In this document: piece by piece, positions 5,167-46,593 of the stretch
Position numbering within the stretch: the first letter of the stretch is position 1
Layout of the letters: each line of letters begins with the position of its first letter
NCBI GenBank assembly: GCA_026395215.1
Contig: JAPLZC010000005.1
Coordinates: forward strand, 8,392-72,391
Reading direction: 5' to 3'
DNA length: 64,000 nt
Source: Candidatus Staskawiczbacteria bacterium
Lineage (GTDB): Bacteria > Patescibacteriota > Minisyncoccia > Minisyncoccales > Staskawiczbacteraceae
The notes under the pieces: generated by a model
What the model saw: only the letters and a program-made list of their open reading frames with translations
Told to the model about the DNA's origin: nothing
Databases searched by the model: none
Program-made: the position numbers and the translations under genes

Positions 5167-6138
5167 TTATTTTAGGAACTTTTCTATAACAGCTTTTGTT
5201 TCTGCGGTATTTTTTACTTTCATAAGTTCATCTCTAAGTTCTTTGGCTCCCCGAAAATCTTTTGCGTAAGCATGAAAATGTTTTTTAATGCTGGCAAATT
5301 TTTTATGATAATTTTTTTCTTTCCTTTCTTCCTTGTGGCATTTATCAAATATTTTGGCGTGTTCTACAATTGCTTTTAGCTTTTCTGTAACGCTGGGAAC
5401 TTTACCGCCAAAAAACCACGGATCTCCCACAACTGCCCTGCCAACCATTATGCCATCTAATCCTTTTTCTTCTGCCAATTTTTTAGCCTCCTCTAAAGAT
5501 TTAACATCACCATTTCCCAAAAGCAAAGTTTTAGGAGAAATTTTATTTCTAAGTTCTACAATTTCTCTTGCCAGCTCCCAATGAGCTTTAGAAAAATACA
5601 ATTCATCTCTAGTTCTAAAATGCACAGTAATTACAGCCGGCTCTTCTTCTAAGATTACACCAATCCATTCTTTGACTTGAATTTTGTTATATCCAATTCT
5701 AGTTTTTACAGATACCGGCAATTTACCGGCCCCTTTTTTTGTTGCCCGAATAATTTCTTTTGCCAGCTGAAAATTTTTAATTAATGCCGCTCCCCCGCCC
5801 TTTTTTTCTATATTTATATCGGGGCATCCCATATTTATATCTATCCCATCAAAACCAAGTTCTGCCATAAGTTTTGCCGATCTTTCAAAATCAGCAAAAG
5901 TTGCCCCAAAAAGCTGAGCAACTATTGGTTTCTCTTTTGGTGAATGTTCTAAAATTTTAAGACAAAATTTTCTACCTCGTGAAAATAATCCTTCTGCAGA
6001 AACAAACTCTGTCCAAAAAACATCTGGTTGCCCGTATTTCAAAAACATGAGTCTAAACGCCTCATCCGTAACCCCCGACATTGGAGCTAAGGCCATAATT
6101 GGCTTTTTTAATTTTCCCCAAAACCCTAGTTGTATCAT
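5167..6138 (-). CDS. dus: tRNA-dihydrouridine synthase
   Basis: MALAPMSGVTDEAFR, DGIDINMGCP with catalytic Cys, and Dus-family length of 323 aa. Confidence 0.9.
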   Translation of the reverse strand: MIQLGFWGKLKKPIMALAPMSGVTDEAFRLMFLKYGQPDVFWTEFVSAEGLFSRGRKFCLKILEHSPKEKPIVAQLFGATFADFERSAKLMAELGFDGIDINMGCPDINIEKKGGGAALIKNFQLAKEIIRATKKGAGKLPVSVKTRIGYNKIQVKEWIGVILEEEPAVITVHFRTRDELYFSKAHWELAREIVELRNKISPKTLLLGNGDVKSLEEAKKLAEEKGLDGIMVGRAVVGDPWFFGGKVPSVTEKLKAIVEHAKIFDKCHKEERKEKNYHKKFASIKKHFHAYAKDFRGAKELRDELMKVKNTAETKAVIEKFLK

Positions 6139-7034
6139 ATAGAAAATTTTCCTACCTTTGTTCGTTTAATAGAAAAGGCTAGCGCTGGCACTTTTATCTT
6201 TTCTCCTAATGAATTTGCCAACCCGCGCACATACGTACCGCTTGTGCATTTTACCACAAAGTCGGCAATATAAAACACCTGAGATTTGTTTTTGCCTAAC
6301 AACTTTTCCTCCCAAATTTTTAAAATTTCTTTTTGTCTAAAATCCCCGCCTGCAGCGCTATGCGCAGCATTGCGGGCAGACCCGCTGACCAGCCCAATTC
6401 TCTTCTCAATATTTAAAAATAACTTGTCGCCTTTAATCTTTTTAATCTTCCCCAAAGTCAATCTCTTCACTAGAATATCTCTTTCTGGAATTTCCACGCT
6501 CTCCCCACTTCTTGCATAACTAAATAATGGTTTACCCTTTACCATTTTTGAAGAATAAATAGGATATTTTTGTTTTAACTTACCCCTAAAATATTTTAAA
6601 TTCTTTTTTATCATCTCCGCAATAAACTCAAAGCGAGGCAGTGTATCCGTAGCGTACCCTGCAGGCAATTTCGCATGGTCCCGCGAAGCGGGGAAATTGC
6701 CGAAGCCTGAGTGAGCCCGCGCTGGCGGGCGAACGCTAGCGAAGGATACACTGCCGAGCGAAGCATCAATGACTTTTCCTAAAATATCATACGTGTCCGT
6801 GCTAAATCCAAATAGTATGCTAAACTCGTACTCCTTATCTAGCGCCAAATACTTTTCTTTATTTTTTATTTCTGGCCCAGCCAACACAACTAAAACCCCA
6901 GATGCCATTGGATCTAATCTACCCGCATATGTCATAGGCACATTCAAATATTCAGGATTTTTTACCTTAAACCCCTCCACCGCACAAAGTGGAGTTTCCC
7001 CTTCCCTTTTATTGAGTACAATTACTTTTTTCAC
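6135..7034 (-). CDS. truB: tRNA pseudouridine synthase (TruB family) carrying two in-frame GC-rich hairpin insertions
   Basis: YAGRLDPMASGVLVV carries the catalytic Asp motif, and TDTYD and YSSKMVKGKPLFSYAR are also present. GTG at 7034 is chosen because the longer ORF would overlap tRNA-Ser. Confidence 0.8.
   Translation of the reverse strand: MKKVIVLNKREGETPLCAVEGFKVKNPEYLNVPMTYAGRLDPMASGVLVVLAGPEIKNKEKYLALDKEYEFSILFGFSTDTYDILGKVIDASLGSVSFASVRPPARAHSGFGNFPASRDHAKLPAGYATDTLPRFEFIAEMIKKNLKYFRGKLKQKYPIYSSKMVKGKPLFSYARSGESVEIPERDILVKRLTLGKIKKIKGDKLFLNIEKRIGLVSGSARNAAHSAAGGDFRQKEILKIWEEKLLGKNKSQVFYIADFVVKCTSGTYVRGLANSLGEKIKVPALAFSIKRTKVGKFSI
6632..6760 (+). repeat. GA-hairpin repeat element, copy E3, inside truB
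   Basis: AGCGAGGCAGTGTATCC...GGATACACTGCCGAGCG termini, inner stems TAGCGT/ACGCTA, GGCAATTTC/GAAATTGCC, CCCGC-GAA-GCGGG and GCCCGC-GCTG-GCGGGC. Length is 129 nt, or 43 codons. Confidence 0.75.
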
Positions 7035-7041
7035 AGATTTG

Positions 7042-7126
7042 CGGAGGAGGTGAGACTCGAACTCACGAATCCTGTAAAGGATTACGGTTTTCGAAACCGT
7101 TGCAATAGCCACTATGCGACTCCTCC
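7042..7126 (-). tRNA. tRNA-Ser (anticodon CGA)
   Basis: Acceptor GGAGGAG/CTCCTCC, anticodon arm ACGGT-TTCGAAA-ACCGT, long variable arm, T-arm GTGAG-TTCGAGT-CTCAC. Confidence 0.85.
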
Positions 7127-12885: not shown

Positions 12886-13554
12886 ATGCTTAATAAAAGG
12901 TCAAAATATTTGCAGATAGCTTTTAACCGCTCTCTTACTGAAGTAAGAAGTATGATTGCATTACTGCCAAGCTCAGAAAAAATTCTTATTGAAGCCGGGA
13001 CACCTTTTATTAAAAGGTACGGGCAGAACGGAGTTTCATTATTAAAAGGTTGGTGGAGTGCTAAATTAGGCAAAGAAGGATATATTGTTGCCGATTTAAA
13101 ATGCATGGATAGAGGGTCTAAAGAAGTTGAATCAATGGCCATGGCCGGCGCTTCGGCAATTACATGTTTGGGGTTGGCGCCAATTGATACAATAAATCAA
13201 TTTATTGCAGAATGCGAAAAATTTGGCATTGACTCAATGATTGATATGATGAACGTAGAATTCCCATTTGAAATTTTGCAAAAGCTAAAAAAACTTCCTG
13301 CTGTAGTTGTTCTGCATCGTGGAGTAGATGAGAATGAAAAAAATAGAGAAAAACAACTCCCCCACAATCAAATACGCAGAATAAAAGGAACATACAATAA
13401 TGTTTTAATATCTGTTGCCGGAGGGGAAAAAACACGAGATGTTATCAGAACTTATTTTAATGATGCTGACATAGCAGTTATTTGGAAATCTTTTTACGAA
13501 GCGCCAAATAACACCGCCGCTTTAGCGAAGGAATTCTTAAAGCTAGTTAAATGA
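12886..13554 (+). CDS. OMP-decarboxylase/HPS (3-hexulose-6-phosphate synthase)-like TIM-barrel protein
   Basis: LQIAFNRSL..ILIEAGTPFIKRYG..IVADLKCMDRG..AGASAITCLG..SVAGGEK fits the HUMPS/KGPDC-family pattern. Confidence 0.6.
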   Translation: MLNKRSKYLQIAFNRSLTEVRSMIALLPSSEKILIEAGTPFIKRYGQNGVSLLKGWWSAKLGKEGYIVADLKCMDRGSKEVESMAMAGASAITCLGLAPIDTINQFIAECEKFGIDSMIDMMNVEFPFEILQKLKKLPAVVVLHRGVDENEKNREKQLPHNQIRRIKGTYNNVLISVAGGEKTRDVIRTYFNDADIAVIWKSFYEAPNNTAALAKEFLKLVK

Positions 13555-14477
13555 TTACGAATAAAAAAAGCTTATATATAATAATAGGACTAATTATTAT
13601 AATTGCCTTTATAATTAACCCGGCATTTGGTTTTTTTGCCGTGTGGATTCTTATAGCTATTTTATCTAAAATAAAAAAACTAAAATCTTCACAAACACCC
13701 GCAACGCTCACTGACTTAATACAAAATTTACAAAGAACTACTAATGAAGAGGCTCAGCCTTTGCTTGATAACACAGCACAAATTGTTTTACCGCAACAAA
13801 TATTACTGGCTCCCGTTGCACAAATAAAATTAGATAAAAGAAAAAAGTATCTTCATATAGCGCTTAATAGCACCCTAGAAGAAGCACAAAATATAATATC
13901 TATTCTACCAACTTCTGATAGAATTTTAATTGAAGCCGGAACACCACTCATAAAAACATATGGAACTGATGCCGTCTCAAGTATTAGAAGTATGGCTCCC
14001 GTTGGAACATATATTGTTGCTGACAACAAATGCTGTGATTTAGCCTCACGCGAGGTGGAAATGATGGCCAATGCGGGAGCTAATGCCTCTACATGCCTTG
14101 GAGTGGCTCCCATAGAAACAATAGACAGCTTTATAGAAGAATGCTCAAAGTTTGGCATTGACTCAATAGTTGATATGATGAATGTTGCAGATGCTCTTTC
14201 GGTTTTAAAAAAACTAAAAAAAATCCCCGATGTTGTTATGTTACATAGAGGCGTTGACGAAAGTGAATTCTCTAAAGAAAAACAAATCCCCTACTACCAA
14301 ATTAAACAAATAAAAGGTAGTTATGATGTTTTGGTGGCTGTGGCCGGAGGAGACACAATTAAAGAAATACAAAGCGCCATTTTTAATGACGCTGATATTG
14401 TTGTAGTTTGGAAAAACTTCTACCAAGCCGACGAGGACACCGCCCAACTAGCCCAATCCTTCCTAAAAGAAATTTAA
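13551..14477 (+). CDS. Paralogous HPS-like protein with N-terminal TM anchor and linker
   Basis: C-terminal 220 aa is collinear with the upstream paralog (LHIALNSTL..ILIEAGTPLIKTYG..IVADNKCCDL..AVAGGDT). Overlaps the upstream stop by 4 nt. Confidence 0.6.
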   Translation: MITNKKSLYIIIGLIIIIAFIINPAFGFFAVWILIAILSKIKKLKSSQTPATLTDLIQNLQRTTNEEAQPLLDNTAQIVLPQQILLAPVAQIKLDKRKKYLHIALNSTLEEAQNIISILPTSDRILIEAGTPLIKTYGTDAVSSIRSMAPVGTYIVADNKCCDLASREVEMMANAGANASTCLGVAPIETIDSFIEECSKFGIDSIVDMMNVADALSVLKKLKKIPDVVMLHRGVDESEFSKEKQIPYYQIKQIKGSYDVLVAVAGGDTIKEIQSAIFNDADIVVVWKNFYQADEDTAQLAQSFLKEI

Positions 14478-19209: not shown

Positions 19210-19758
19210 ATGCACAAATATTTAGATTTATACGACTTTATAGATTTTGCAAAAGGCAATAGAAAGTACCCGGAGAATACGGCAAATGGCTTAAAATCTG
19301 CTTTAAAAATTTTTGAAAAAGTTCTTAATTTAGACGAACTTAACTCTATAGATTTGGTTGAAGACAACATAGAAGAGATATTTATAAACGTTGTTGGCAA
19401 AAACAAAGACAAAAATATTGGCTCGCTAAACACTTATAAGGCCCGTGTACTTAAGGTAATAAAAGATTACCAAAGATATGGCGCTAACCCAAGCAAAATA
19501 CAGGGCTGGAGCATCCCCCTTCGGGGGATGTCCCGTAGGGACACAAAACCCAATAAATTTATAAGAAAAGATACACCAGATAAAGAACAAGATAAAACCC
19601 AGACAGCCTTATCTGACCATATTAACACCCCTGTGCATAAGATTGAGCTCTCGCTAAGAGACAACATGAAGTCTATGGTAGTTGTTCCCAAAGACATTAC
19701 TGCCAAAGAAATTAAAATGTTCAAAGACATCCTTGATTCTCTGTCCGTTGAGGAGTAA
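19210..19758 (+). CDS. Hypothetical protein with in-frame twin-hairpin insertion
   Basis: 182 aa with no recognisable family. Codons for ..IPLRGMSRRDT.. are supplied by the GC-rich motif at 19513-19544. Confidence 0.5.
   Translation: MHKYLDLYDFIDFAKGNRKYPENTANGLKSALKIFEKVLNLDELNSIDLVEDNIEEIFINVVGKNKDKNIGSLNTYKARVLKVIKDYQRYGANPSKIQGWSIPLRGMSRRDTKPNKFIRKDTPDKEQDKTQTALSDHINTPVHKIELSLRDNMKSMVVVPKDITAKEIKMFKDILDSLSVEE
19513..19544 (+). repeat. Twin-hairpin GC-rich motif, copy 1
   Basis: ATCCCCCTTCGGGGGAT followed by GTCCCGTAGGGAC. A near-identical inverted copy lies at 62744-62777. Confidence 0.7.
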
Positions 19759-20913: not shown

Positions 20914-21525
20914 ATGATTTTTCTCGATATAGTTGGCATATTTATTTTGGGCTTAGCTGGAGGCGCAAACCCTGGTCCATTAATTGCATCAGCTTTTGCT
21001 GAATCTTTAAGGAATGGCTTTGTAAAAAGTCTTCGTATCATTTTTTATGGATTAGTCGCTGAAACTATTGTAGCGGCTTTTATTTTGTTTTTATTTTTCT
21101 CTATAAATATCCCTACAATAGTTTTTTACATAATTTCTTTTGTTGGGGCTACTGTTTTAATCTGGCTTGCTGTCCAGGTTTGGAAGATCAAAGAAATCGG
21201 TGAGGGAAAAGAAATTTTCACTTTTAAAAAAATATTCTTGCTTACAGTATTCAACGGCCCATTCTGGATTTTTTGGATAGCGGTCTGCCTGCCCCAAGCA
21301 TATTTACTAAAAGAACAAATCCCTGCAGGAAACTTTATGTTTTTGTTGATATTCGAACTAGGTTGGTTGGTTGCAACAATGTTGTTAGTCTATATATTCT
21401 CACGCTTCCGCGGATTGCTGACGAATACAAATCGCTTCCAGATGGTCATGAAAATAATCGCCGTTATACTTTTATTTTTCGCCGCCAAACTAATTTTCCA
21501 AAGCATAATGTTTCTAATATCTTAA
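20914..21525 (+). CDS. LysE-family amino-acid exporter-like membrane protein
   Basis: 203 aa, 5-6 TM, N-terminal GANPGP motif. Terminator AAAAACCG..CGGGACGGTTTTTT at 21528-21561. Confidence 0.65.
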   Translation: MIFLDIVGIFILGLAGGANPGPLIASAFAESLRNGFVKSLRIIFYGLVAETIVAAFILFLFFSINIPTIVFYIISFVGATVLIWLAVQVWKIKEIGEGKEIFTFKKIFLLTVFNGPFWIFWIAVCLPQAYLLKEQIPAGNFMFLLIFELGWLVATMLLVYIFSRFRGLLTNTNRFQMVMKIIAVILLFFAAKLIFQSIMFLIS

Positions 21526-21565
21526 CTAAAAACCGTCCACGAGAAATCGGGACGGTTTTTTAGTA

Positions 21566-21730
21566 GAGCGAGGCGGTAAGTTTCCAGCGAGGAAATAGAT
21601 TTTAAAGGCACCTTCGGAGCCCTGCCAGCATGGTTTCCGCAACAGCGGAATGGCAGGGCGAGAATGAGGCGCGTCCCGCCGCTGGGCGGGATGACGCCGG
21701 TGCCGACTAAAATTTATTTCCGAGCGAGCG
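21566..21730 (+). repeat. GA-hairpin repeat element, copy E4
   Basis: AGCGAGGAAATAGATTTT...AAAATTTATTTCCGAGCG outer stem, GGCACC/GGTGCC, CCTGCCA..TGGCAGG, TTCCGC-AACA-GCGGAA, TCCCGCC-GCTG-GGCGGGA. About 93 percent identical by eye to 54773-54953. Confidence 0.75.
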
Positions 21731-23278: not shown

Positions 23279-23444
23279 AAGCGAGGCAATTAACTGTAGT
23301 GAGGCAGTAAGTTTCCAGAGCGAGGCAATAAACTTTTTGTAGGCCCAGGTCGACTTGCCCGAAGAGGCAAAGCGAGTTCCTGCTTGCCGAAAAAAGTTTG
23401 TTGCCGAGCGGCGATTACTGCCGAACGAAATTTGTTGCCAAGCG
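23279..23444 (+). repeat. GA-hairpin repeat element, copy E5, three nested layers
   Basis: Successive left arms are AAGCGAGGCAATTAACT, GTGAGGCAGTAAGTTTCC and AGCGAGGCAATAAACTTTTT. They are matched in reverse order by AAAAAGTTTGTTGCCGAGCG, GATTACTGCCGAACG and TTTGTTGCCAAGCG. Confidence 0.65.
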
Positions 23445-26185: not shown

Positions 26186-26331
26186 AAGCGAGGCGATAGA
26201 TTAATAGCGAGGTAGTAAGTTTTCAGCGTATTTCAGGACACAAAGTGCCTGACCTAGTGAGTTTTCCCGCGAAGCGGGACAACGAACGTTAGCAGAAAAC
26301 TTACTGCCGAGCGATATCTGATTGCCGAGCG
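26186..26331 (+). repeat. GA-hairpin repeat element, copy E7, two nested layers
   Basis: Outer stem AAGCGAGGCGATAGAT / ATCTGATTGCCGAGCG. Inner stem AGCGAGGTAGTAAGTTTTC / GAAAACTTACTGCCGAGCG. Core contains TCCCGC-GAA-GCGGGA. Confidence 0.7.
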
Positions 26332-32683: not shown

Positions 32684-33892
32684 CTACAACTCTGTCATTT
32701 CTATTTTTAATTTATACAACATTATAGAAACAGGAAAACGTAAGGCCTTAGCTGAAAGAGAAAGCGAGTTTTTCGCGCTATGTGCAATAATAATACCTCG
32801 AACTGTCTTGCCCATTTTTTGTGCAAGATTTCCTTCTACCCACTGCATATATCTTCCTAATTGGCCCGCGACAGCATCCGCTGCTGAATTTCTTTTTAAC
32901 TCAATAACAACAAAGTTGCCCTCTTTATCTATGGCTAAAATATCAATTGTTCCCACATCCTTAATATTATAATACTGTCCAGATCTACCATCCGAGTCAT
33001 TATACAACTCTAGCTCGCCGCCAAGTGATATTTTACCCATATTTTCAAATATAAAATTTTGAAGATCCTCCTCGTAAGTAAATCTCTCACCAGTTGTAAG
33101 GCTTTCCTTCTCACCAGAATCATCTACCCCTTCCGGCGCCGTAGTATCAGAATCTATTGCTTCAACATCAACTCCTACGACATCTTCTTTCTGCATAATC
33201 TGTGCTACAACATAAATAACATCTTGAGTTATCCATCTAAATTCATCGTCCTGAAAGGTAAGCCCACTCGTTAATGCATCCTTGATAGCTGAAATTTCAT
33301 TATTTTGCTTCAAATACTCTCTCATATCTTCAATTTTTGGTAAATATGCTTCGTATCTTTCTCCATCGGAAGTGTGGCCTGGAATTGAGAAATCGTTGTC
33401 TAGGAACTTACAGAAAATATTCCATTCCCGTGGCTTCAAGGCATTATGTAACATCGGATATCGATAACTCAGCAAAAGACTAAGGAATCTAATTCCAATA
33501 AAACTATGAGAGCTTTCGCCCAATCGTTTATTTCGTAACAACATAAGCTCATCAAATGATTTTTTTGTTTCGTTTATTCTCTTAGAAACTTTTTTATTAT
33601 CGTCAAATAGATTTCTTAGGATTTGGCGCGTTTCATCAGGGTTTTCTGTGGCAAAAATCAATAACATTTTTCTAGGAAAATACCAGCTACCAGCCACAAG
33701 ATTATTATTAACTATGGATGACTCAAGCATTGATACCAAATCATCAGCTTCTATGTTGAAGTTACGCATAAAAGTATCCACGGCCTTAAATTTATAACCC
33801 TCCTGATTTTTTACGTGCTCTTCAACTCCAATATCGGAAACATGTTTAAGAAATATCTTTACCCATTCTTGAATTTTTTCTTGATTAATCAT
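32684..33892 (-). CDS. NucS-C/DUF91-type PD-(D/E)XK nuclease with variable N-terminal domain (paralog 1)
   Basis: C-terminus reads VGTIDILAIDKEGNFVVIELKRNSAADAVAGQLGRYMQWV (D..ExK plus the QxxxY helix as in NucS). The N-terminus resembles the module seen on McrB-like restriction ATPases (..NLVAGSWYFPRKMLLIF..PDETRQILRNLFDD..). Confidence 0.65.
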   Translation of the reverse strand: MINQEKIQEWVKIFLKHVSDIGVEEHVKNQEGYKFKAVDTFMRNFNIEADDLVSMLESSIVNNNLVAGSWYFPRKMLLIFATENPDETRQILRNLFDDNKKVSKRINETKKSFDELMLLRNKRLGESSHSFIGIRFLSLLLSYRYPMLHNALKPREWNIFCKFLDNDFSIPGHTSDGERYEAYLPKIEDMREYLKQNNEISAIKDALTSGLTFQDDEFRWITQDVIYVVAQIMQKEDVVGVDVEAIDSDTTAPEGVDDSGEKESLTTGERFTYEEDLQNFIFENMGKISLGGELELYNDSDGRSGQYYNIKDVGTIDILAIDKEGNFVVIELKRNSAADAVAGQLGRYMQWVEGNLAQKMGKTVRGIIIAHSAKNSLSLSAKALRFPVSIMLYKLKIEMTEL

Positions 33893-33922
33893 ATATTTTT
33901 ATTTCTCGATTAATTTTTTTAT

Positions 33923-34090
33923 TTAATTTTTAAAATCGCTTTCGTCGGGCGTTAAAACATCCAAAAAAATTATCGCTAGAATAGAGAATACAATCCCCAT
34001 TGGCAAAAAACCATACTTTTTCAGCACAAACGCGCAAGCCACCGCCCCCACTATTTCTATTATAATCCTAAACCTAAAAGCTATCTCCAT
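33923..34090 (-). CDS. Possible 55-aa two-TM micro-protein
   Basis: By-eye translation gives MEIAFRFRIIIEIVGAVACAFVLKKYGFLPMGIVFSILAIIFLDVLTPDESDFKN*. No clear Shine-Dalgarno sequence. Below the ORF-track length cutoff. Confidence 0.3.
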   Translation of the reverse strand: MEIAFRFRIIIEIVGAVACAFVLKKYGFLPMGIVFSILAIIFLDVLTPDESDFKN

Positions 34091-34102
34091 TTTTACAATC
34101 AA

Positions 34103-34597
34103 TTAATTTTTATCTTTATGAGTCGGAATAAAGGTTACCTCGCACTCTACTTTTTGGTCTTCCTTATCTGCGGTATCATCTTCATCAACATCATCCTCGC
34201 AATAGTGACCAGCAAACTTTTTGCCCCATTCCCAACGGCATTTTTTGCAATGCCATTCAGGGTCTTCACCCGTAATACAACACCCACCCCAATAAATATC
34301 TATTCTTTCATTAAGCTCTACGCTATGTTCACCATACTCAATTTTTAAAACTTCGGCCGATCCACACTTTGGACACTTTTTAGGATTTAATTTTAAAATT
34401 TCAATTTTTTTCATCCAATTATCCAGCTCCTCTTTCATAAGAACTATTTCATCATACTCATATTCATCAACCCCCTCTAAAAAATCCGTAAATTTTTCAA
34501 ATACAATATCCGTAAGATCTTCACTAATATACTTATCTATTTCTTCCCGCGTTACCTCATTTTTTGTTTCCATAATTTTATTTTTCATATTTATCAA
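34103..34597 (-). CDS. Acidic protein with C-terminal zinc ribbon
   Basis: CPKCGSAEV...CCITGEDPEWHCKKCRWEW. Overlaps the upstream HNH gene by 20 nt. Confidence 0.55.
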   Translation of the reverse strand: MINMKNKIMETKNEVTREEIDKYISEDLTDIVFEKFTDFLEGVDEYEYDEIVLMKEELDNWMKKIEILKLNPKKCPKCGSAEVLKIEYGEHSVELNERIDIYWGGCCITGEDPEWHCKKCRWEWGKKFAGHYCEDDVDEDDTADKEDQKVECEVTFIPTHKDKN

Positions 34598-34952
34598 TAT
34601 AATTTTTTACGACCTTAGCGACGGCAGAATAATTTATATTTTTTTCTTTACAATAATCTTTTTTAAACCAATCCCGTAAGCTTTGGTCTTTTCTATTTGT
34701 ATTGCAATCCCAACAACAAATCGCAGTAATTTCACAGACCGGTTTGCCCTTGTTAACATAATCCCTTATGCTAACCCAATTTTTTTTATGATTAAGATGT
34801 TCAAATGTAGCACAATTCCTTATATTATTTGGGTCCCAGGAAAAAAGCATTTTTTTATGACAATATACACAATTAGTGTCTCTCTTTTTAATTTCTTCAA
34901 AATCATTTACTGGAATCCCATATTTATTTTTATAATACTGGCTATTCTGCAT
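34578..34952 (-). CDS. HNH-type nuclease-like protein
   Basis: TNCVYCHKKM..ATFEHLNHK..CCWDCNTNRKDQSLRDWF, with CxxC..H..N..CxxC-N spacing. Confidence 0.6.
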   Translation of the reverse strand: MQNSQYYKNKYGIPVNDFEEIKKRDTNCVYCHKKMLFSWDPNNIRNCATFEHLNHKKNWVSIRDYVNKGKPVCEITAICCWDCNTNRKDQSLRDWFKKDYCKEKNINYSAVAKVVKNYIDKYEK

Positions 34953-34954
34953 TT

Positions 34955-36139
34955 TTATTTCTCAATTAATTTTTGTTTTTTAAACTCTTGTAAACTAAAA
35001 TTTACTTTATACAAATAAACTTCTGTATCTTTTATTTTCTTCAAAGCATAATACAACCTCTCATCATACTTAGCCGAAATTATAATTCCCTTTACCTGCT
35101 CACCATCAGCTTTATTTTCTTCTATCCAACCCATATAACGCGCCAGTTGCCCAACAGTGTCATCACTTGTTTGGTTCTTTTTTAACTCGATTACTACATA
35201 CTGTTTAGTTTTCTTATCTTTAACAAGAATGTCTATTCTACCAACATTGGTTTGATATTGTTGGCTAACTAATTCTCCGCCCTCTTCAATTAAATCATAT
35301 TTTTTTCCTAATTCTGTTTTATCCCAATTCTCAATCAGAAAATCCTCTAATTGGCTCTCCATATAAAACAAACTTGGGTCAGAAGATTCTTCCACCTCTA
35401 ATGTCCCGATACTTTCATTTCCTATATCTTGCTTTTTTAAACCACCCCAAGGAGCTGGATCATCTTCCGCTTGAACCTTCCAAGATGAAACAATTAGATA
35501 AGAGTATAGAAAACAAGATAAGGTTCGTGGAGAGCACTTTAAACCAGCGTTTCTAAATCCGTTTATTATGGCTTCATTACTTTTAATTATTTTTTGTCCT
35601 ATTAATTCCCCCTCAAAAAGATTTTCAGAAGGAATATTAAAATATTCAATAACTTTCTTGCGGTCATTCAGAGATATCACACTTATAAATGATTTCGGAT
35701 CCCAAGCAAAGAGCATGGCATTAATTGCATTCCCACTTTGTCCAGTTAAATTATTGTGCCTCCCCTGATTTAATTTATATAAATCATCGATTAGCGCAGC
35801 AATTTCTTCTTTTGAAAAATTGAATATCTGATTAAGTTTCTCTTTTAATTTTGGCTCCCTCTTTATCTCATTAAACATTCTCCTCCACGCTCCTTGTGGT
35901 ATCATTGCCTTTGCAACAGCCTCACTATTCTTATTGTTTCCCTTGCCATTTCTGTCTAATATTCTAACCACTTCATCTATTTCCGCATCATCTAACTCTT
36001 TATCGTTATCTACCAATATTTTATTGTTCCAAAAATTACGAAATAGAGCACTCTGTTTTGCCCATATAGCATCCTTCTCCTCCGTATTATAATCTGCTAT
36101 AAATTTATTGAATAAAGATAAAATTTCTTCTTTTTCCAT
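34955..36139 (-). CDS. NucS-C/DUF91-type PD-(D/E)XK nuclease with a different N-terminal domain (paralog 2)
   Basis: C-terminus reads VGRIDILVKDKKTKQYVVIELKKNQTSDDTVGQLARYMGWI. ATG 36139 lies 4 nt after the upstream stop. Confidence 0.65.
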   Translation of the reverse strand: MEKEEILSLFNKFIADYNTEEKDAIWAKQSALFRNFWNNKILVDNDKELDDAEIDEVVRILDRNGKGNNKNSEAVAKAMIPQGAWRRMFNEIKREPKLKEKLNQIFNFSKEEIAALIDDLYKLNQGRHNNLTGQSGNAINAMLFAWDPKSFISVISLNDRKKVIEYFNIPSENLFEGELIGQKIIKSNEAIINGFRNAGLKCSPRTLSCFLYSYLIVSSWKVQAEDDPAPWGGLKKQDIGNESIGTLEVEESSDPSLFYMESQLEDFLIENWDKTELGKKYDLIEEGGELVSQQYQTNVGRIDILVKDKKTKQYVVIELKKNQTSDDTVGQLARYMGWIEENKADGEQVKGIIISAKYDERLYYALKKIKDTEVYLYKVNFSLQEFKKQKLIEK

Positions 36140-36143
36140 ATTT

Positions 36144-37088
36144 TTATTTCTCAATTAATTTATTATTTATAAGTTCCACAAACATTATAACTTTATTCTT
36201 GTTCCAATCCATAATTTTGACATACTTTCCATTGTGCTTATTCGGTCGGTTATATTTACAACCCTCACACTCATATTTCTCAACAGTGTCTGGTGTCTCT
36301 CCGAAGAGTGTTAACTTACCAGGAATAACCTTATTTTCATGATGGCAACTCATAGGAACAACATACTTTAGACCATCCATTTGAAAAATATTCCAGCTTA
36401 TGATTTCGGCAAATTCTTCTTGTACTCTGAGGTCTGGTGATCGCTTAAACTTATCCTTGTAATAATCAATAAGCGTGTATAGCAAATTCTCGCGTGCAAG
36501 TAACACATTATCACCCTGCCACTCATAGCCGTAACTTGCCATAAATGCAACTTTTGCCCAGAATAACCACCCACCCTTTTTATGACAATGTTTAGATACT
36601 ATTTTCAATTTTTTATCTAAAAAACCAACCCGACTATCTAATTTGATAAGTTTGCCAGTATGCGCAGTTGGATTATAACGACTCGCAATGAATGGTGCTT
36701 CACCACATGTAATCTCTAGCTTCAACTCGCGCACATACTCTTGCCAATTGTTTTTATCAGACATGAAATTTTTCCCCGACATATCTGTCTCTTTGTTGAT
36801 CTGGTCAATAATTTTCAGTGGTGTAAAAACTTCAGCCTTGTCTTTAGTCCGTTTCTTCTGCTCCTCTAAGCTTTTGGATGCCCGCGGCTGTATGAGTAAT
36901 CCGTATTTACCGGTCACTAAATTTGGTGTGATACACAATTCAGGCAAAAACCCCTGACCGTATTTTTCATATGAATCAGTCGCCCAGATAATATTCTTTT
37001 TTGTTGTGCGATCAATAAGTAAAATATCGAGCAAATTACCAATTCGTCGCAATGTATTTTCTAGTATGTCGATATTTAGCTTAGACAT
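36144..37088 (-). CDS. Methyltransferase-fold-like partner protein lacking NPPY; C-terminal Cys cluster
   Basis: KAEVFTPLKIIDQIN and EITCGEAPFIASRY resemble the pre-motif-I and motif-I region of gamma-class MTases. No (N/D/S)PP(Y/F/W) motif is present. C-terminus carries SCHHEN..CEGCKYN. Confidence 0.5.
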   Translation of the reverse strand: MSKLNIDILENTLRRIGNLLDILLIDRTTKKNIIWATDSYEKYGQGFLPELCITPNLVTGKYGLLIQPRASKSLEEQKKRTKDKAEVFTPLKIIDQINKETDMSGKNFMSDKNNWQEYVRELKLEITCGEAPFIASRYNPTAHTGKLIKLDSRVGFLDKKLKIVSKHCHKKGGWLFWAKVAFMASYGYEWQGDNVLLARENLLYTLIDYYKDKFKRSPDLRVQEEFAEIISWNIFQMDGLKYVVPMSCHHENKVIPGKLTLFGETPDTVEKYECEGCKYNRPNKHNGKYVKIMDWNKNKVIMFVELINNKLIEK

Positions 37089-37093
37089 AAGAA

Positions 37094-40000
37094 TTATTCA
37101 AAACAACCAATGATATTTTTTTCAGATTTTTCCTGAATATTCGCCATTACAAAATTATTTATTTTTTCAGGTATTTTATATTTTTCCATTAACTTGATAT
37201 CAATTTCCTTAACTGATTTTTTCCACCATGCTTCAGAATAATTCTGAATGGGAACTGCTCCCCAAGCTGTGGTTGAATGTTGGGAGTGCTTATTAAAATA
37301 CAAAAGTGCTCGAGCAAATTTTGTCATTAAAAATTTTGCATGTTTTTTTGCCTCAGTAATATTACTAAAAGGCCCTTGCTCTTGGTAAGTTTCTGTAACT
37401 ATTTCATATGGTTTAGCTATGATGATATCAGAATATGCACCACCAAGACCCGCCTGCTCTGACATGTTTCCCCAAGCATAGGGAACAAATACTTTAAATT
37501 TATCAAACGCTTTGGTTTTTCTTGGTATTGGATATTCTTTTCCTAGATAATAAACTTTACCAGAGAGAGCATATAATTTAACATCGTCTGCATTCCGTTG
37601 TTTTGTGTGTATTGGTGGCAAACCATATTTAGCTGGATCCTTGATCACGTCAGTACGTAGACCATATGGTTTAAGAACTGACGTAATAGATTGCATAGGA
37701 ACAAAATCTTCGAATGCTGTAACTATTTTTGCCATTTCCCGAATTTCTTTAGGTTTTCTATCATGATTTTGTTCAGTTGGTAGCAGTATTATTTGTGGAT
37801 CTTTTCCGTTAGTAAATATTTTTTGACTACCGTTTAAACCATTATTATATCCGTGTTTCCATAAAACTATATTTGTCCACTCTGCTCCGGCGATACCAGG
37901 AAAGACATTTTGCCGGTTGTCTACAAAGACTACCTGAGGATCTTCTTTGATGTCTTTATTGTTAAGTAGTCTTAAATTATTGCCATTCTTAGGGTCCTGC
38001 CATCCAATTGGAAAAATGAGTGAAACAAATTCACCAAGCTCACGACTCGCTAAATAAAAATAGGGATAAATCTGTTGATGATTTTCTCCTTGATATGGCG
38101 GATTTCCTACGATGGCTGTAAATTTCATATTTTTTCCAAAATTAATTTTAATTTTATCAGATAAGGCATTGCGATTTTCAACCATTTGTGTATCCTCGTC
38201 CTCAAAATATACAAAATTCTTTTCTACTTTATACTTAACTTTTTTTAATTCTGGTCGTCTATGCATAAAGCCAAAAATAGTATCGCTAGATATTAAGTGT
38301 AAAATCTTACTCGGTGCAAAGCCGTATACTTGGTGCGTTAATATATGTTCTAGGCGTTTATTCTTATCGGGTATTTGGCGCTGTAAGTTATTATACAACC
38401 TTTTAACTATTTCAGTTATAAACAACCCCGATTTCATATATGGGTCAAGAAATGTATTCTCTTTTGATTTGAATATACCAGGATTCTGCTTTTCGAGGGT
38501 ATCGATTATCATTTTAACAACAGCTTTAGGGGTATATATCTGATTAGTTTGCTGTGGAGGAATGTAGTCAAATATATCTGAATCGCTGTCATTTTCATAA
38601 TAGTCCGCCAACTTCTCCTTACGGCTTAAAAATTCGACAATTGAGGCATTAAAAACTTCTTCATTGAATAATTTATACTTATCACGCAATTCCTGGAATT
38701 GTTCTTTAGTAATACCGACAAGCTCTTGAAAGGTTATAGAGTCTATATACTTTTCAAAATTATCGAGTCTAGTGTCTGGTTTACCATATGCCATCAAAAT
38801 CATTGGAACAGCACGAGCAAAGTAACGTAAGTGATCATGAATTGCATTTTCTTGTTCAGCCTCTTCCTTTTCAGCCTGTTTTTCCAGCTTGGTTTTTATA
38901 TCAGAAGGAGGCAAGTCATCAACGGTTGGTGGCTGATCTGTTGGCAAGTCTGGGTTGTCTTGTATCAATTCTTCGTATTTTTTCTTACCAAGGTTTGATT
39001 TATTGAGTATCAGATTGCCATCATTATCGTACTCAAGTTGAGGCTCGGAAATAGGGTTTTTGTTTTTGTCATGCTCTATGCGCCCTTTTTTTATAGTACC
39101 CATTTCATTCAATATATCTCGTGCGCTGGCAGGCAGGTGAAAGATGTTACCAATGTTGAAAAGCTTATTTGAGGTAATAAATTTACCGTCAACGATCTCC
39201 TGCGTCATGAGTTTGAGGGGCATAGTAACGACTTCATTGGCATCAAGCTCTTTCATCTCGCCGTATTCATCTTCAGCAACTACAGTCAAAAAGTTAAGTA
39301 ATTTTTTTACCTTATCTTTGGCTCCCTCCCCGCCCCCAATAACACTCTTGGCATAATCTTGAAATATAAGCAACAATCTATCGGGCGCAAAATCAAACAC
39401 ATAACAGTTTTCTTTTACCATGTCGTTGCCACTTTTGTCCGTATAGCGCCATGGATTCTGTCCTCGAAAAGCAGCCTGAAGATATTTGGTAGCGGAGGTC
39501 TTGCCACCTTCAGCCCCGTAAAGCATCAACACCGCAGTCCATGGTTTTACAGTTACACCAGTTGTTAATTGCCCACATGAAAGGGTAATAGTCTTAGTTG
39601 TAAGTGGTTTATTGTCTTCACCAATAATATTCTTAACTTTCTCTAGTGCAGTTTTTCCTTCGTGCTCAGTGTCACCTTTAGCAGCAGCATCAATAATTTC
39701 ATAATCAGCAAAAATCTTCCGAGAAGGAGAGTTTCTCGCCTGCTCTTGCATAAGTTTCTTTAGTGCTTTGACGGCAGATACACCTGGCAGTAGCCAAAAT
39801 GTATGCTTAAGTTCATCACGAATCTCTTTGTCCGCGAATGGAAATGGTCGAGCATTTTGGTCATTTTTGCTATTAATACCGAACATATTATCTAGAAACT
39901 TCAGCACCATCTCTTCATATACAAACTTGGCTTGTGTGGTCTTAAATAGCTCGTTAAGATCAAAAGCGTATTCACCATCTGCGACAGTAGCATTAAGAGT

Positions 40001-41122
40001 GTTAGAAAGTCTGTATGCAAACATATTCAGACGGGGCAGTTCATAATAAGGATTTTCGCCGTCGGTCGGGTCCCAGTTTTCCTTAGCAGATTGCTCATCC
40101 TCGTAAGTCCAGTTAAAGATTTGTTTAATATTAAATTTTTTGCTTGTTAGTGCCTTGAATGGTGTCCCCGAGAGATGAAGGGTAAAGTTAGTCCGTAGAT
40201 TTTTAAAAAGTTTGTAAGCATTCTCAGTTTCGGTCGCTTCATGACTTTCGTCTATTATAAAAAGATCCCATGATTCATTGAAAATCCATTGATTCTTTTG
40301 CTTAAAAGACTCTAGATTATTCGTATCTCTACCTTTAATATCCTGCAATGATATAAAAAAGATCGTTGACTCTCCATTCTTAATGGCGGTCTTAGTTTCA
40401 CTAACGGTTAGCGCACGACCCTGTAAATGACCTGCGGTGGTAATATGTTTGTTGTCTTTTGTAGAACCAAATTTAAAGATTCCTTTAGGTTGAATAAACT
40501 GCCGGTAATCAGTATACCAAGAATCAGAAATAGCCGGACGATTTGTAACAATAAGTACTTTTTTAGCCTTAATTTTTTCTATGAACCAGTAACTGGTCAA
40601 AGTTTTGCCGAAGCGAGGTTTGGCGTTCCATAGAAATTCACGCTTTCCCTGTTGTGAGTTATTCCAATATGCATAGGTTTGATCAATGGCATACTGCTGT
40701 TCATCACGAAGTGTAATGCCTAGATTAATTTTTTTAAGAATATCCGTGTCAAAACCGCTCAGATTTTTGCGTGCTTCTATGGCTGCAATGGCCTCGTTTT
40801 TGGTCATTTTATACCATTCTGCAAAACGACCACTTTTAGAATTTTTCTTTTTCTCACGCTCATACTTTCCAGTAGCGTCAATAATTGCATGAACTTCAAA
40901 ATCACGGAATGGCTTGCCATTCTTATCAATAGCATCGGTCATATAGAGCGTTTCTGCCTTAATATTATCGGCTTCATTTTGCTCTTTGATACGACCGGAG
41001 TTAAAACCAGTCTGATCACCAATTTTTAGCCAACCTAAATGTTCTTGGCTCTCGGGGTGATGATAGACATAAATTACCTTTTTTTCTTTGCCTGTTGCTT
41101 TGATATTATTCATAATAACCAT
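37094..41122 (-). CDS. T5orf172/GIY-YIG-like + SF2 helicase + gamma-class N6-adenine DNA methyltransferase fusion (Type ISP-like)
   Basis: GGAG lies 6 nt before ATG 41122. N-terminus reads VIYVYHH..LKIGDQT..RIKEQN..HAII..FAEWYK. Helicase motifs are AKPRFGKT, FIIDESHE, LSGTPF and QAAFRGQNP. MTase motifs are FLDPYMKSGLF and AIVGNPPYQ. Confidence 0.75.
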   Translation of the reverse strand: MVIMNNIKATGKEKKVIYVYHHPESQEHLGWLKIGDQTGFNSGRIKEQNEADNIKAETLYMTDAIDKNGKPFRDFEVHAIIDATGKYEREKKKNSKSGRFAEWYKMTKNEAIAAIEARKNLSGFDTDILKKINLGITLRDEQQYAIDQTYAYWNNSQQGKREFLWNAKPRFGKTLTSYWFIEKIKAKKVLIVTNRPAISDSWYTDYRQFIQPKGIFKFGSTKDNKHITTAGHLQGRALTVSETKTAIKNGESTIFFISLQDIKGRDTNNLESFKQKNQWIFNESWDLFIIDESHEATETENAYKLFKNLRTNFTLHLSGTPFKALTSKKFNIKQIFNWTYEDEQSAKENWDPTDGENPYYELPRLNMFAYRLSNTLNATVADGEYAFDLNELFKTTQAKFVYEEMVLKFLDNMFGINSKNDQNARPFPFADKEIRDELKHTFWLLPGVSAVKALKKLMQEQARNSPSRKIFADYEIIDAAAKGDTEHEGKTALEKVKNIIGEDNKPLTTKTITLSCGQLTTGVTVKPWTAVLMLYGAEGGKTSATKYLQAAFRGQNPWRYTDKSGNDMVKENCYVFDFAPDRLLLIFQDYAKSVIGGGEGAKDKVKKLLNFLTVVAEDEYGEMKELDANEVVTMPLKLMTQEIVDGKFITSNKLFNIGNIFHLPASARDILNEMGTIKKGRIEHDKNKNPISEPQLEYDNDGNLILNKSNLGKKKYEELIQDNPDLPTDQPPTVDDLPPSDIKTKLEKQAEKEEAEQENAIHDHLRYFARAVPMILMAYGKPDTRLDNFEKYIDSITFQELVGITKEQFQELRDKYKLFNEEVFNASIVEFLSRKEKLADYYENDSDSDIFDYIPPQQTNQIYTPKAVVKMIIDTLEKQNPGIFKSKENTFLDPYMKSGLFITEIVKRLYNNLQRQIPDKNKRLEHILTHQVYGFAPSKILHLISSDTIFGFMHRRPELKKVKYKVEKNFVYFEDEDTQMVENRNALSDKIKINFGKNMKFTAIVGNPPYQGENHQQIYPYFYLASRELGEFVSLIFPIGWQDPKNGNNLRLLNNKDIKEDPQVVFVDNRQNVFPGIAGAEWTNIVLWKHGYNNGLNGSQKIFTNGKDPQIILLPTEQNHDRKPKEIREMAKIVTAFEDFVPMQSITSVLKPYGLRTDVIKDPAKYGLPPIHTKQRNADDVKLYALSGKVYYLGKEYPIPRKTKAFDKFKVFVPYAWGNMSEQAGLGGAYSDIIIAKPYEIVTETYQEQGPFSNITEAKKHAKFLMTKFARALLYFNKHSQHSTTAWGAVPIQNYSEAWWKKSVKEIDIKLMEKYKIPEKINNFVMANIQEKSEKNIIGCFE

Positions 41123-41161
41123 TATTATCTCCAGTTTAGTCCTAAATCGGGTTGGGTTCAA
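41123..41161 (-). repeat. Upstream box (U-box), copy 1
   Basis: Minus strand reads TTGAACCCAACCCGATTTAGGACTAAACTGGAGATAATA. Near-identical to 42494-42533. Readable as TTGAAC-17-TAAACT. Confidence 0.6.
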
Positions 41162-41261: not shown

Positions 41262-41696
41262 TCATTGCCTGGGGAATACCCGACGCTCCAACCATAATTC
41301 GTTTGGGTTGATGGGGCGACCTATTGGACCTTGAGAAACGCAAACCCATATAAATATCGCCACCGCTATGGCCAACATTATCTTAGCTATAGTTTCTGAT
41401 ATTACCATCAAAAGAAACAGGAAAAGGCCGGCACCTATAAATCCTAAACTACCCATAATCGCCCTCACCCACCACGGCCAAAGTTTCATTACCAGTGTAA
41501 TGTAGGGAATGAAAAGCGTGAATGCGCACAGGGCAAAGACGCTAGCCCAAAACAAAGACAACCACAACCATTTCTTTTCAGTCAGTTTGTTGTCCCTGTC
41601 TGATTCGTGAAAACAAAACGCTATGAAAAATGCAGCTCCCAGTATTATCTCAACAACTGCAACGAAGCAGTAACCACCCAAAGATAAAATGCTCAT
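41262..41696 (-). CDS. Integral membrane protein (moderately GC-rich cassette)
   Basis: ATG 41696 (MSILSLGGYCFVAVVE..) follows the leader hairpin, the GCTCTTTGACA box and AGAAAGGA. Terminator CCCCGCGATAACTCGTGGGG plus T-run at about 41208-41240. Confidence 0.55.
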   Translation of the reverse strand: MSILSLGGYCFVAVVEIILGAAFFIAFCFHESDRDNKLTEKKWLWLSLFWASVFALCAFTLFIPYITLVMKLWPWWVRAIMGSLGFIGAGLFLFLLMVISETIAKIMLAIAVAIFIWVCVSQGPIGRPINPNELWLERRVFPRQ

Positions 41697-41904
41697 TTGA
41701 TATTCCTTTCTTGTCAAAGAGCAACCCATTTGCTCCTTTATTCTCCTTAATTTAAGCTTACTACTAACCATGGGTTTGTCAATCCTTCGACTCCCTTCGA
41801 CTACGCTCAGGGCAGGCGCTCAGGACAGGTAATTTCTCTGGCAAACAAAATCGGCTCAGCGCACCCAAGGGGTACCCGGCCGATGAGCCGATTGGGGAGA
41901 TTAA

Positions 41905-42486
41905 TTAATTTGATAATTTTAATAAGGCCAAAAGGGCTTCGGGGAATTTGGTTATGCCGGAAGAACCGCTGAAGTGATCGCGGTTTTCTAAAATAATTAT
42001 TTCTGAACCAAGTTTATCTTTGTAGTCTTCGGCGTTATCTAAAGAAACATATTTGTCGTTGGTAGAAAAAATGGCAACGCTTTTGTTTATGTGCTTTTTT
42101 ACTTTGGCAAAATCAATTGGTGTTTTATTCCATTCCCTATCAACATCAATAGCGTCTGGCTCTCGCTCTAAATTGGTGATTGGTCTAAAAAATCCGGCAA
42201 CAAAAACCGCACCTCCAATTTTTACATTTTCGGGCAAACTCTCAAGATATCTTACTATTGTTTGGCATCCCATGCTGTGACCTACAAAATAAGTTTCGGA
42301 GTCCGGGACTCCGACAACCTTTGATAAAGCAGGCACCCATTTATTTATCCGCGGAACATCGGCGTCTGGCAATTGCGGAACAAAAACTGCAAAGCCATTT
42401 TTTTCTAATTCTTCTTTAATCCAAGGAAACCATCCCTCTTCAGGATTTCCACTCCATCCGTGTATAATGTAAACTTTCTTCGCCAT
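41905..42486 (-). CDS. Alpha/beta serine hydrolase (YdeN/RBBP9-like)
   Basis: VYIIHGW, nucleophile elbow VGHSMG, C-terminal D and H. The 10-bp stem AATCGGCTCA/TGAGCCGATT terminator lies at about 41852-41898. Confidence 0.7.
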   Translation of the reverse strand: MAKKVYIIHGWSGNPEEGWFPWIKEELEKNGFAVFVPQLPDADVPRINKWVPALSKVVGVPDSETYFVGHSMGCQTIVRYLESLPENVKIGGAVFVAGFFRPITNLEREPDAIDVDREWNKTPIDFAKVKKHINKSVAIFSTNDKYVSLDNAEDYKDKLGSEIIILENRDHFSGSSGITKFPEALLALLKLSN

Positions 42487-43283: not shown

Positions 43284-43437
43284 ATTCTATATATCCATTT
43301 TATCCCTAAACCAACTCATTTTCAAGGTTCAACTGTAATCTCCCCCGCCCCAGGTTAATGAGTATTGACCTGGCCATTCCACTTTCACCAAGCCATAAAG
43401 GAATCCAAATAATCTTTTATGCACGTAAAAATCAAAC

Positions 43438-43467
43438 AAAAAAAAGACGCTTATTTGATTCAGCGTC
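43438..43467 (-). terminator. Shared cassette terminator, copy R1
   Basis: Minus strand reads GACGCTGAATCAAATAAGCGTC followed by T8. Confidence 0.7.
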
Positions 43468-43497
43468 ATGCTTGCAGAACAAGCAATTGCGCCTGAT

Positions 43498-44238: not shown

Positions 44239-44435
44239 TGTCTTTCTCCTGTTGGAAAATTAAATACACTAAAGCCTAGTTTGGAAAGAGCATATCATTA
44301 ATACCATATTTACGCACCAATGTCAACACCAATCACAACCCCACTGAATTGACAAGATTGGGGTTTTATTGTAGGTTGATTAGTGTAGCATGGGGCTACT
44401 GATCATTCACAAACAACCAACAAAGGGACAAAGCA

Positions 44436-45059: not shown

Positions 45060-45120
45060 AACAAATTGCAAAAGCAACACCAACCCGGAAGTATAAATAT
45101 ACAACCGGGCTTTTTTTTAC

Positions 45121-45150
45121 AAAAAAAAGACGCTTATTTGATTCAGCGTC
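45121..45150 (-). terminator. Shared cassette terminator, copy R2
   Basis: Hairpin identical to R1 (GACGCTTATTTGATTCAGCGTC on plus), flanked by an A/T run. Confidence 0.7.
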
Positions 45151-45176
45151 ATGTTTGTTTCTTCTTTCTCGATAAA

Positions 45177-45608: not shown

Positions 45609-45694
45609 ACAGTCCTCCTTTTCGAGTTACCACACATGCAATCAGGTTTATTTACACATTATAACTTTAACAATTTTTAGTCAATTAGTTTTGC

Positions 45695-45724: not shown

Positions 45725-45727
45725 ATA

Positions 45728-46561: not shown

Positions 46562-46593
46562 ATACTTGTGCAAAAAAACTTTGTGTTTACAGG

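Follow-up and report, generated by a model that had tools for sequence, protein, structure and literature searches.

Two nearly identical copies of a GC-rich palindrome, E4 at 21586-21727 and E8 at 54785-54926, lie on the plus strand of a 64,000-nt stretch of Candidatus (Ca.) Staskawiczbacteria DNA (contig JAPLZC010000005.1 of assembly GCA_026395215.1, positions 8,392 to 72,391; hereafter the window), and the question that they raise is what kind of element they represent. A preliminary description of the sequence left two possibilities side by side, a functional structured RNA or a mobile hairpin of single-stranded DNA (ssDNA). The second of these is supported by the present analysis and the first, as a new RNA gene, is not. 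With moderate confidence, E4 and E8 may be considered two recent copies of one subtype of a non-autonomous palindromic repeat family, a new family in Ca. Staskawiczbacteria of the candidate phyla radiation (CPR/Patescibacteria) that resembles the repetitive extragenic palindromic (REP) sequences and the Rickettsia palindromic elements (RPEs). The elements are most likely selfish hairpin DNA. This assignment is made because of a combination of features, namely nesting, solo arms, positions just after stop codons, a stem mismatch, a GTAG at part of the 5' ends, an in-frame copy in truB, and presence or absence among relatives. For its kind the family is unusual in its recursive nesting, its near-invariant orientation and its CPR host.

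As first described, E4 and E8 are collinear and near-identical; a repeat finder aligned them with 93% identity over 142 nt. They are separated by 33 kb and their neighboring genes are unrelated. Exactly 10 differences are found inside the element and all 10 fall at paired positions of the predicted fold. Between E4 and E8, three pairs changed on both sides and remained canonical (21622/21656, CG to UA; 21623/21655, UA to CG; 21637/21648, CG to UA), three switched between G.U and Watson-Crick pairing (21597/21715, 21598/21714 and 21673/21692), and a single pair was broken (21621/21657, CG to AG). From simulation, the probability of obtaining at least three compensated double changes given 10 random substitutions is 2.5e-5.

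The two copies share a fold composed of four helices. In E4, with termini AGCGAGG...CCGAGCGA, a 14-bp stem (P1) is closed by GCGAGG at 21587-21592 opposite CCGAGC at 21720-21725, followed by the 6-bp P2 (GGCACC/GGTGCC), the P3 hairpin with a 7-nt GCAUGGU bulge (GCATGGT in the DNA) and an AACA loop, and a junction, CGAGAATGAG, that leads to the P4 hairpin with its GCUG (GCTG) loop. Read in order, the outer stem consists of G-C, C-G, G.A, A.G, G-C and G-C pairs, which places the tandem G.A/A.G mismatch that had been proposed at G21589.A21723 and A21590.G21722. As RNA, E4 and E8 have predicted folding energies of -86 and -78 kcal/mol (z = -8.8 relative to dinucleotide-shuffled sequences) and the DNA fold is also strong (-47.5 kcal/mol, z = -8). 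The minus strand of E4 and E8 as RNA is weaker by 8-11 kcal/mol while still being a strong folder (z of -5 to -7). It had been noted that outer-stem differences become G.U pairs only in the plus sense. This is true of E4 and E8 but amounts only to a tendency for the family as a whole, with G.U outnumbering A.C cells by 18 to 9 and by 10 to 1 and the plus sense folding better than its complement in 24 of 25 copies, a result that is suggestive only, given that the folds and alignments were made in the plus sense.

A covariance model was built from E4, E8 and a distant relative, L077. The model recovered the A-type copies of the family with E-values from 1e-9 to 1e-5, among them the copy within truB (6632-6761, E = 8e-10) in which the GCATGGT bulge and the GCTG-loop hairpin had been noted before. 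In the alignment, 91.9% of the cells are paired compared to 70% in shuffles, both partners have changed in 32 of 52 pairs, and covariation scores 0.515 compared to 0.08-0.13 when the partners were slid; the alignment was fitted to the model, which favors structure, yet the margin is large. The covariation is thus real, and the family fold is maintained through compensatory changes. The E-type elements have a conserved fold of their own. Many element loops are of the C-GAA-G kind (GCGAAGC), a very stable DNA mini-hairpin motif, and tandem G.A pairs within a CGAG context are stable in DNA and RNA alike. These two features decide neither the DNA nor the RNA reading. As had been supposed, no Rfam family matches the fold: a search of Rfam 15 over the window at the gathering threshold returned tRNAs only, and at E <= 10 whatever overlapped with E4, the truB copy or L077 had an E-value of 0.7 or more.

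The wider family is built from a unit in which a helix is closed by 5'-(GT)AG[C/T]GAG...CGA[G/A]CG-3'. In addition to E4 and E8, the termini AGCGAGG...CCGAGCG(A) recur at 6632-6761, 23280-23444 and 26187-26331, all in the plus sense, so that the window holds five loci with family termini and nine layers in 64 kb. A related short hairpin, TCGGCGAGCGGGCAAAAAAT / ATTTTTTGCCCGCGAGCCGA, lies on the plus strand at 349-412 and has the same CGAG/CGAG tandem G.A. Where six large plus-oriented copies had been counted previously, the present count is of five loci with the family termini and this related hairpin as a sixth, all in the plus sense. Units of the form YGAG-stem-CGAR number 13 on the plus strand of the window and 1 on the minus strand. 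The tandem G.A/A.G two pairs from the helix base is invariant in every copy and layer. The arms beside the termini, 17-21 nt in length, are complementary yet variable between copies (GGCAGT..., GGAAAT..., GGCAAT...). Subtypes differ in the core at the apex; the A and B types have a three-way junction, the D and E types do not, and there are others. Short A-type copies are without the P3 extension and the bulge.

The units are nested within one another. E4 is preceded by an outer 5' half-arm, AGCGAGGCGGTAAGTTTCC, at 21567-21585 on the plus strand, a D-type arm with GTAG in front of it and with its 3' partner missing. E8 has a degenerate outer 5' arm, GTGAGACAATAAGCTTTCCAAG, at 54763-54784 (plus strand, read directly) and an outer 3' arm, ...CTGGAAATTTACTGCCGAGCG, at 54927-54953 (plus strand), the end of which lies 4 nt from the stop codon of yraN (UPF0102). 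The locus at 23280-23444 (plus strand), between the clpP stop and the rny start, is triple-nested, with an E-type core at 23319-23410, 5' arms at 23280, 23298 and 23319, and 3' arms that end at 23427 and 23444. At 26187-26331 (plus strand), 11 nt upstream of the trigger-factor start, outer arms surround a D-type element at 26206-26314. The arms of that intact D-type element are also found as the outer arms of E4 and E8 and as those of the middle layer at 23298. In the A and D types, UGAG...CGAA frames the inner P4 hairpin and is the same tandem G.A unit as in the outer helix. Since P4 shares this unit and the arms are layered, the element is built recursively from one kind of unit, an inner unit being ~28 nt and the composites 90-190 nt in length. 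At some sites, solo arms have been left.

Comparison of sites among relatives brings out the dynamics of the family. One genome has near-identical A-type copies at five loci, and a short-read contig of the same organism breaks exactly at two elements. At the rny site, most relatives with an RNase Y of 80-88% identity carry no element; others have an E-type element, a D-type element or, in the stretch from stop codon to terminator, a solo arm (CGCTCGGCAAY or ATTGCCTCGCT). After the yraN stop, where the window has the B-type E8, there is an A-type element in L104, an A-variant with extra arms in L105 and L106, a further type in L107, a D-type element with remnants in L108, and a decayed arm only in L102 and L103. 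Across the sequences compared, the family is thus seen to spread within genomes, to be gained or lost between close relatives, and to re-occupy the same sites with different subtypes. In the spacer between yraN and nusA of the relatives L102, L104, L107 and L108, the element was also seen to border on or run into the -35 box of the nusA promoter (CCTCGCTTGACA...TAAACT) with its 5' terminus, and a decayed arm was observed with the -35 box on one side and the -10 box on the other. The elements may have helped to form this promoter, or the promoter may have placed limits on them.

The truB gene provides a copy within a coding sequence. The truB open reading frame (ORF) at 6135-7112 is on the minus strand and the A-type copy at 6632-6761 is on the plus strand, antisense to the gene. 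The insert is the reverse complement of the A-type element, is in frame with no stops, and lengthens the protein by ~45 residues, with GKVID before it and EFIAEM after it. On its two sides, residues 27-116 and 162-218 of the window protein are matched by E. coli TruB, and the Pfam TruB_N match is split. Among 13 TruB orthologues, an insert is present at this site in 7 (with different lengths and sequences), 5 have none, and 1 has fused termini only (SLLPR). The subtype at the site is A in the window, an A-type core inside an extra layer in the JBAZUH genome, and E in L110, where the element is almost identical to the one at 23319-23411 in the window. Between two genomes the A-type core in truB is ~90% identical while the TruB proteins are ~64% identical; therefore either the genes are far older than the elements or the copies have been homogenised. 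A peptide search with the TruB insert, using a word index that demanded three shared 5-mers, returned no match. A second GC-rich in-frame insert, VSGSARNAAHSAAGGDF, was observed inside truB at 6328-6411 and is present in 3 of 14 TruB orthologues; it is probably another, smaller inserted element.

With respect to genes, the orientation of the family is nearly constant. Of 27 copies, about 26 run antisense to the gene beside them, with the CCGAGCG end typically 2-7 nt from the stop codon of that gene. Other copies lie between genes of one operon, 11-15 nt ahead of the next start. The sole exception in orientation, L003, is in the sense direction and the GTAG before the element supplies the TAG stop of the upstream gene. 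As the preliminary description had it, E4 and E8 each lie behind a terminator of a plus-strand gene and next to a minus-strand stop codon, ending 3-5 nt from the stops of rny and yraN, respectively. The terminators are bidirectional; the one before E4 (21525-21561, an A-run, stem and T-run acting in both directions) ends a plus-strand LysE-family gene and, in the opposite direction, the rny transcript after it has crossed E4. E4 and E8, lying between the minus-strand stop codon and the terminator, are thus antisense within the 3' untranslated regions of rny and yraN.

These features may be compared with known repeat systems, beginning with REPs and their composites, the bacterial interspersed mosaic elements (BIMEs) and the REP doublets forming hairpins (REPINs). 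REPs have a GTAG tag and conserved stem mismatches that are needed by the REP-associated tyrosine transposase (RAYT) nuclease acting on a folded single strand (PMC8266576). They lie within 20 bp of ORF 3' ends, the genes on either side being convergent or co-directional, and the GTAG often doubles as a stop codon; truB is a repeated host of intragenic REPs and in R. conorii is interrupted by RPE-1 (PMC3733652). The family shares with REPs, BIMEs and REPINs an imperfect palindrome with a conserved two-base stem mismatch and, at about a third of its termini, a 5' GTAG, a large number of mostly extragenic copies that are single or clustered and include solo units and doublets, positions less than 20 nt after stop codons with convergent or co-directional neighbors, occasional use of GTAG as a stop, and truB as a recurrent intragenic host. 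In contrast to those systems, its units are nested at the apex and not side by side, its elements are 90-190 nt long with structured cores that include a three-way junction, its mismatch is a G.A/A.G two pairs from the base, its orientation to genes hardly varies, the ~1.1 Mb sampled yielded no RAYT gene, and its host is a CPR bacterium.

RPE-1 and its relatives are likewise palindromes of 100-150 bp that form long hairpins and occur both between genes and in frame within conserved genes such as truB. No transposase is known for RPEs and their host also has a reduced genome. However, Rickettsia belongs to another phylum and RPEs have not been described as nested, strictly oriented or carrying a tandem G.A; the likeness drawn here is one of description, and with a CPR host no membership among the RPEs is claimed. 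MITEs (miniature inverted-repeat transposable elements) are similarly small and non-autonomous with complementary ends and a variable interior. Unlike MITEs, the family has neither a target-site duplication nor a parent insertion sequence with the same ends, and its arms beyond the first 6-10 nt vary yet stay complementary with the mismatch conserved, which points to recognition of a folded single strand and not of double-stranded terminal inverted repeats. Palindrome-associated transposable elements (PATEs) derived from IS200/IS605 have in common with the family a single-strand logic, a strand or orientation bias and no target-site duplication. PATEs differ in having a separate subterminal hairpin at each end, where the family forms one global hairpin, and in being tied to TnpA/TnpB, neither of which was found here.

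By analogy with REPs and from the anatomy of the units, a mechanism may be proposed. Recognition would be of the folded single-stranded form, in which the mismatch and a GTAG-like tag identify the strand, much as RAYT-type HUH nucleases read REPs. New copies would enter at the apex or the termini of existing units, and cores could be swapped between the conserved termini by recombination or gene conversion. Once inserted, the hairpin belongs to the host transcript and would probably also act as a 3'-end hairpin of that mRNA, as REPs do, an effect that is considered secondary. A cis role of the hairpin in host mRNAs is plausible and compatible with selfish spread.

The taxonomic range of the family appears to be narrow. 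The closest named homologues of the window proteins are from Ca. Staskawiczbacteria, and the window TruB is 100% identical to a protein from a Staskawiczbacteria metagenome-assembled genome (MAG). A scan for the termini pattern in 185,579 species genomes, one per species, gave 8 matches in two Ca. Staskawiczbacteria genomes; 6 further matches were scattered in unrelated GC-rich DNA, had no hairpin, and equal the chance expectation. A stricter scan for hairpin plus termini, covering 1.02 Mb from the window, the two genomes and 80 loci from metagenomes that surround RNase Y orthologues, yielded 30 matches compared to 0 in reversed sequence. Viral contigs scanned with three patterns gave chance matches in GC-rich phage DNA only, and E4 had no BLAST match in phage and plasmid collections. 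From these sequence scans, the family would be confined to Ca. Staskawiczbacteria genomes and metagenomes only. No description of such repeats in CPR was found in the literature searched. Two other weak matches to the covariance model were rejected: L085 was unconvincing, and L084 (E = 0.014), from another CPR lineage, has behind rny a long perfect palindrome of a different kind. The L084 palindrome (L084:3432-3556) is an observation in its own right, being ~125 nt long, near-perfect, unrelated to the family in sequence and located directly after the rny stop in a lineage with 51% G+C. It follows from L084 that long palindromes after rny are not confined to one lineage.

Several observations weigh against a REP/RPE-like family. 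A mobilising enzyme was not seen: the 67 ORFs of the window include no transposase, reverse transcriptase, integrase or Nop-domain protein and no Y1_Tnp domain, and the search for RAYT or IS200/IS605 TnpA genes that had been proposed as a check returned no phmmer match (E <= 10) among six-frame ORFs from ~1.1 Mb of the window and related loci, the queries being E. coli RayT and an approximate IS200 TnpA sequence, the result with the latter being a lead only. No direct repeat indicative of a target-site duplication was found outside the termini in the flanks of ~25 copies. GTAG precedes or overlaps the AGCGAGG terminus in only ~8 of 25 true 5' termini, mostly those of outermost layers, with TAA, CAG or similar in the rest. 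In the window 78% of the ORFs are on the minus strand and the GC skew is negative on the plus strand; were minus to be the leading strand here, the plus sense, which is the better folder, would be found on its template, the opposite of how IS200/IS605-type elements are arranged, with the caveat that GC skew is confounded by gene orientation and that coupling to replication could not be separated from coupling to transcription. The repeated occupancy of the same sites could indicate old, vertically inherited, functional elements. L077 (L077:11846-11988) is a B-type core without GCGAGG termini on a distant CPR contig whose RNase Y is 51% identical. Together with the conserved junction and bulge nucleotides and the unpaired sites at which E4 and E8 do not differ, this core without termini suggests a constraint beyond that on a simple hairpin.

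The best surviving alternative, although an unlikely one, is that the elements are cis-acting RNAs of host transcripts in which the hairpin protects the 3' end of the mRNA, insulates genes or tunes translation termination, with spread being incidental. Copies do lie inside transcription units, either between stop codon and terminator or between operon genes, and 2-7 nt from stops. The site after yraN is filled in almost every relative, directly ahead of the nusA promoter and with no other terminator. The strand present in the mRNA also folds strongly (z of -5 to -7), and REPs are known both to stabilise mRNA and, near stop codons, to affect translation (PMC3733652). However, the mRNA strand is the worse folder in 24 of 25 copies, and in the mRNA sense the mismatch becomes C.U/U.C and each G.U becomes A.C. 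The same sites are empty in many close relatives and one copy is within a coding sequence. Since unrelated cores replace each other, no particular core is needed.

A more elaborate version of the mobile hairpin, unlikely and offered tentatively, is a self-nesting hairpin that would home to others of its kind, at their apex or termini, and exchange structured cores, driven by an enzyme unrelated to RAYT or IS200 TnpA or by host recombination alone. In such an element at least one core, the three-way junction of the B and A types that L077 has without the family termini, would be a functional RNA or ssDNA module transported among reduced CPR genomes.

It is rather improbable that the module is the functional entity by itself, that is, a new trans-acting or autonomous structured RNA or ssDNA in which the three-way junction with its GCAUGGU bulge, GARUGAG junction and GCUG loop matters and the termini are a mere vehicle. 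L077 is a point in favor of this idea. Its B-type core is without the termini, has the P2, P4 and junction sequences of the B type, and has a fully covarying P1 and P3 with 17 pairs changed on both sides; it is read in the sense direction, with an HU gene 8 nt ahead of it and a terminator behind it. The differences between E4 and E8 spare all unpaired nucleotides, the A-type core in truB is better conserved (~90%) than the TruB proteins around it (~64%), and an RNA with no Rfam match would be new. Against these points, recent spread or gene conversion accounts equally well for the conservation of the core, and only three B-type sequences are known (E4, E8 and L077). Copies are antisense within host transcription units, one of them in a coding sequence, and orientation to transcription is not kept, L077 being sense and the window copies antisense. 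The short A-type copies do without the P3 extension and the bulge, and the D and E types without the junction. On the plus strand, E4 and E8 lie behind terminators and neither was found to have a promoter-like site ahead of it; an independent plus-strand small RNA gene was rejected on the lack of such a site.

A stem-loop guide of the tigRNA/snoRNA kind can be dismissed as highly improbable, for although stem-loop TIGR arrays with extended stems have been described in the Ca. Staskawiczbacteria lineage (bioRxiv 10.64898/2026.09.09.750476), where TIGR-Tas systems have palindromic stems and G.A-containing box C/D motifs, and although the terminal stem of the element carries a tandem G.A, the family fails every defining feature, with no RUGAUGA/CUGA boxes, no asymmetric k-turn bulge, no paired ~10-nt hypervariable spacers (copies of the same subtype are near-identical throughout), dispersed and nested units in place of an array, and no Nop-domain or Tas protein among the window ORFs. 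Two further candidates were rejected. A hammerhead-like reading of the A-type CUGAGUGAG...CGAAC has an extra core base and no A15.1, is absent from the B type, and has no match to an Rfam ribozyme. For an integron attC site, the termini AGCGAGG / CCGAGCG do not correspond to R''/R' sites (RYYYAAC / GTTRRRY), and the context is wrong for promoterless cassettes, the neighbors being housekeeping genes and one copy being intragenic.

Other features of the window were recorded along with the family. A 12-nt palindrome, CCGCTTAAGCGG, occurs in clusters at 53857-54341 and also at 55822-55852 and 57861-57891. One cluster follows a promoter-like site (TTGACA-N17-TAGAAT) that is located upstream of the ORF at 54000-54680, which has no Pfam match, and another is inside this ORF with a 54-nt period. 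The clusters look like operator sites of a helix-turn-helix (HTH) protein, and an HTH_17 gene is nearby in relatives. The GC-rich segment at 1139-1307 adjoins tRNA-Leu (1343-1428) and contains partial copies of the tRNA-Leu 3' part, direct at ~1165-1182 and inverted at 1282-1304; no tRNA or Rfam call was obtained for the segment, which may be the scar of an integrated element. A repeat with two adjacent hairpins, CCCTTCGGGRGATGTCCCGTAGGGACACAAA, is found at 19475-19552 (plus strand) and 62720-62789 (minus strand), within the ORFs at 19210-19758 and 62257-62823, neither of which has a Pfam match. The orientation relative to each ORF is the same, and the repeat is either a paralogous protein segment or another inserted element.

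A GC-rich island at 41767-41905, between the ORFs at 41262-41771 and 41905-42486, contains repeats of the kind CCTTCGACTMCSCTCAGGRCAGG. The region at 43428-48131 has a higher G+C content (42-44%), several ORFs without a family match, and near-identical terminator-like hairpins, with AAAAAAGACGCTTATTTGATTCAGCGTC occurring four times and AAAAAACCGCCTCCAGCCTAGCTCGGGACGGTTTTTT twice in identical form at 47395 and 48060. The region at 32684-41161 encodes two NucS/PD-(D/E)XK nuclease-domain proteins and a 1355-residue fusion of a ResIII helicase with an Eco57I-type methylase, has repeated AT-rich upstream sequences (repeat families D7 and D12), and is a probable defence island. In nusA (51803-53119), the NusA_N Pfam match covers 155 residues compared to a profile of 119 positions, and the NusA N-terminal domain may hold another insertion. 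A 177-nt direct repeat with 70% identity (13080-13256 and 14009-14185) is present because two adjacent paralogues of the orotidine monophosphate (OMP) decarboxylase family lie there (12886-13554 and 13551-14477).

The genomes of CPR/Patescibacteria are very small and are generally held to be repeat-poor. Within 64 kb of such DNA, a structured palindromic family occupies five to six loci. The family breaks short-read assemblies, adds ~30-45 residues to the conserved enzyme TruB, and creates spurious ORFs and "hypothetical proteins"; in the source MAG, truB itself is annotated as hypothetical. With the family recognized, the annotation and binning of these genomes would be improved. REP/RPE-like biology, including the recurrent use of truB as a target, would be extended to a distant phylum. 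With no known single-strand transposase in sight, the family may also serve as a place to look for the agent that mobilises it.

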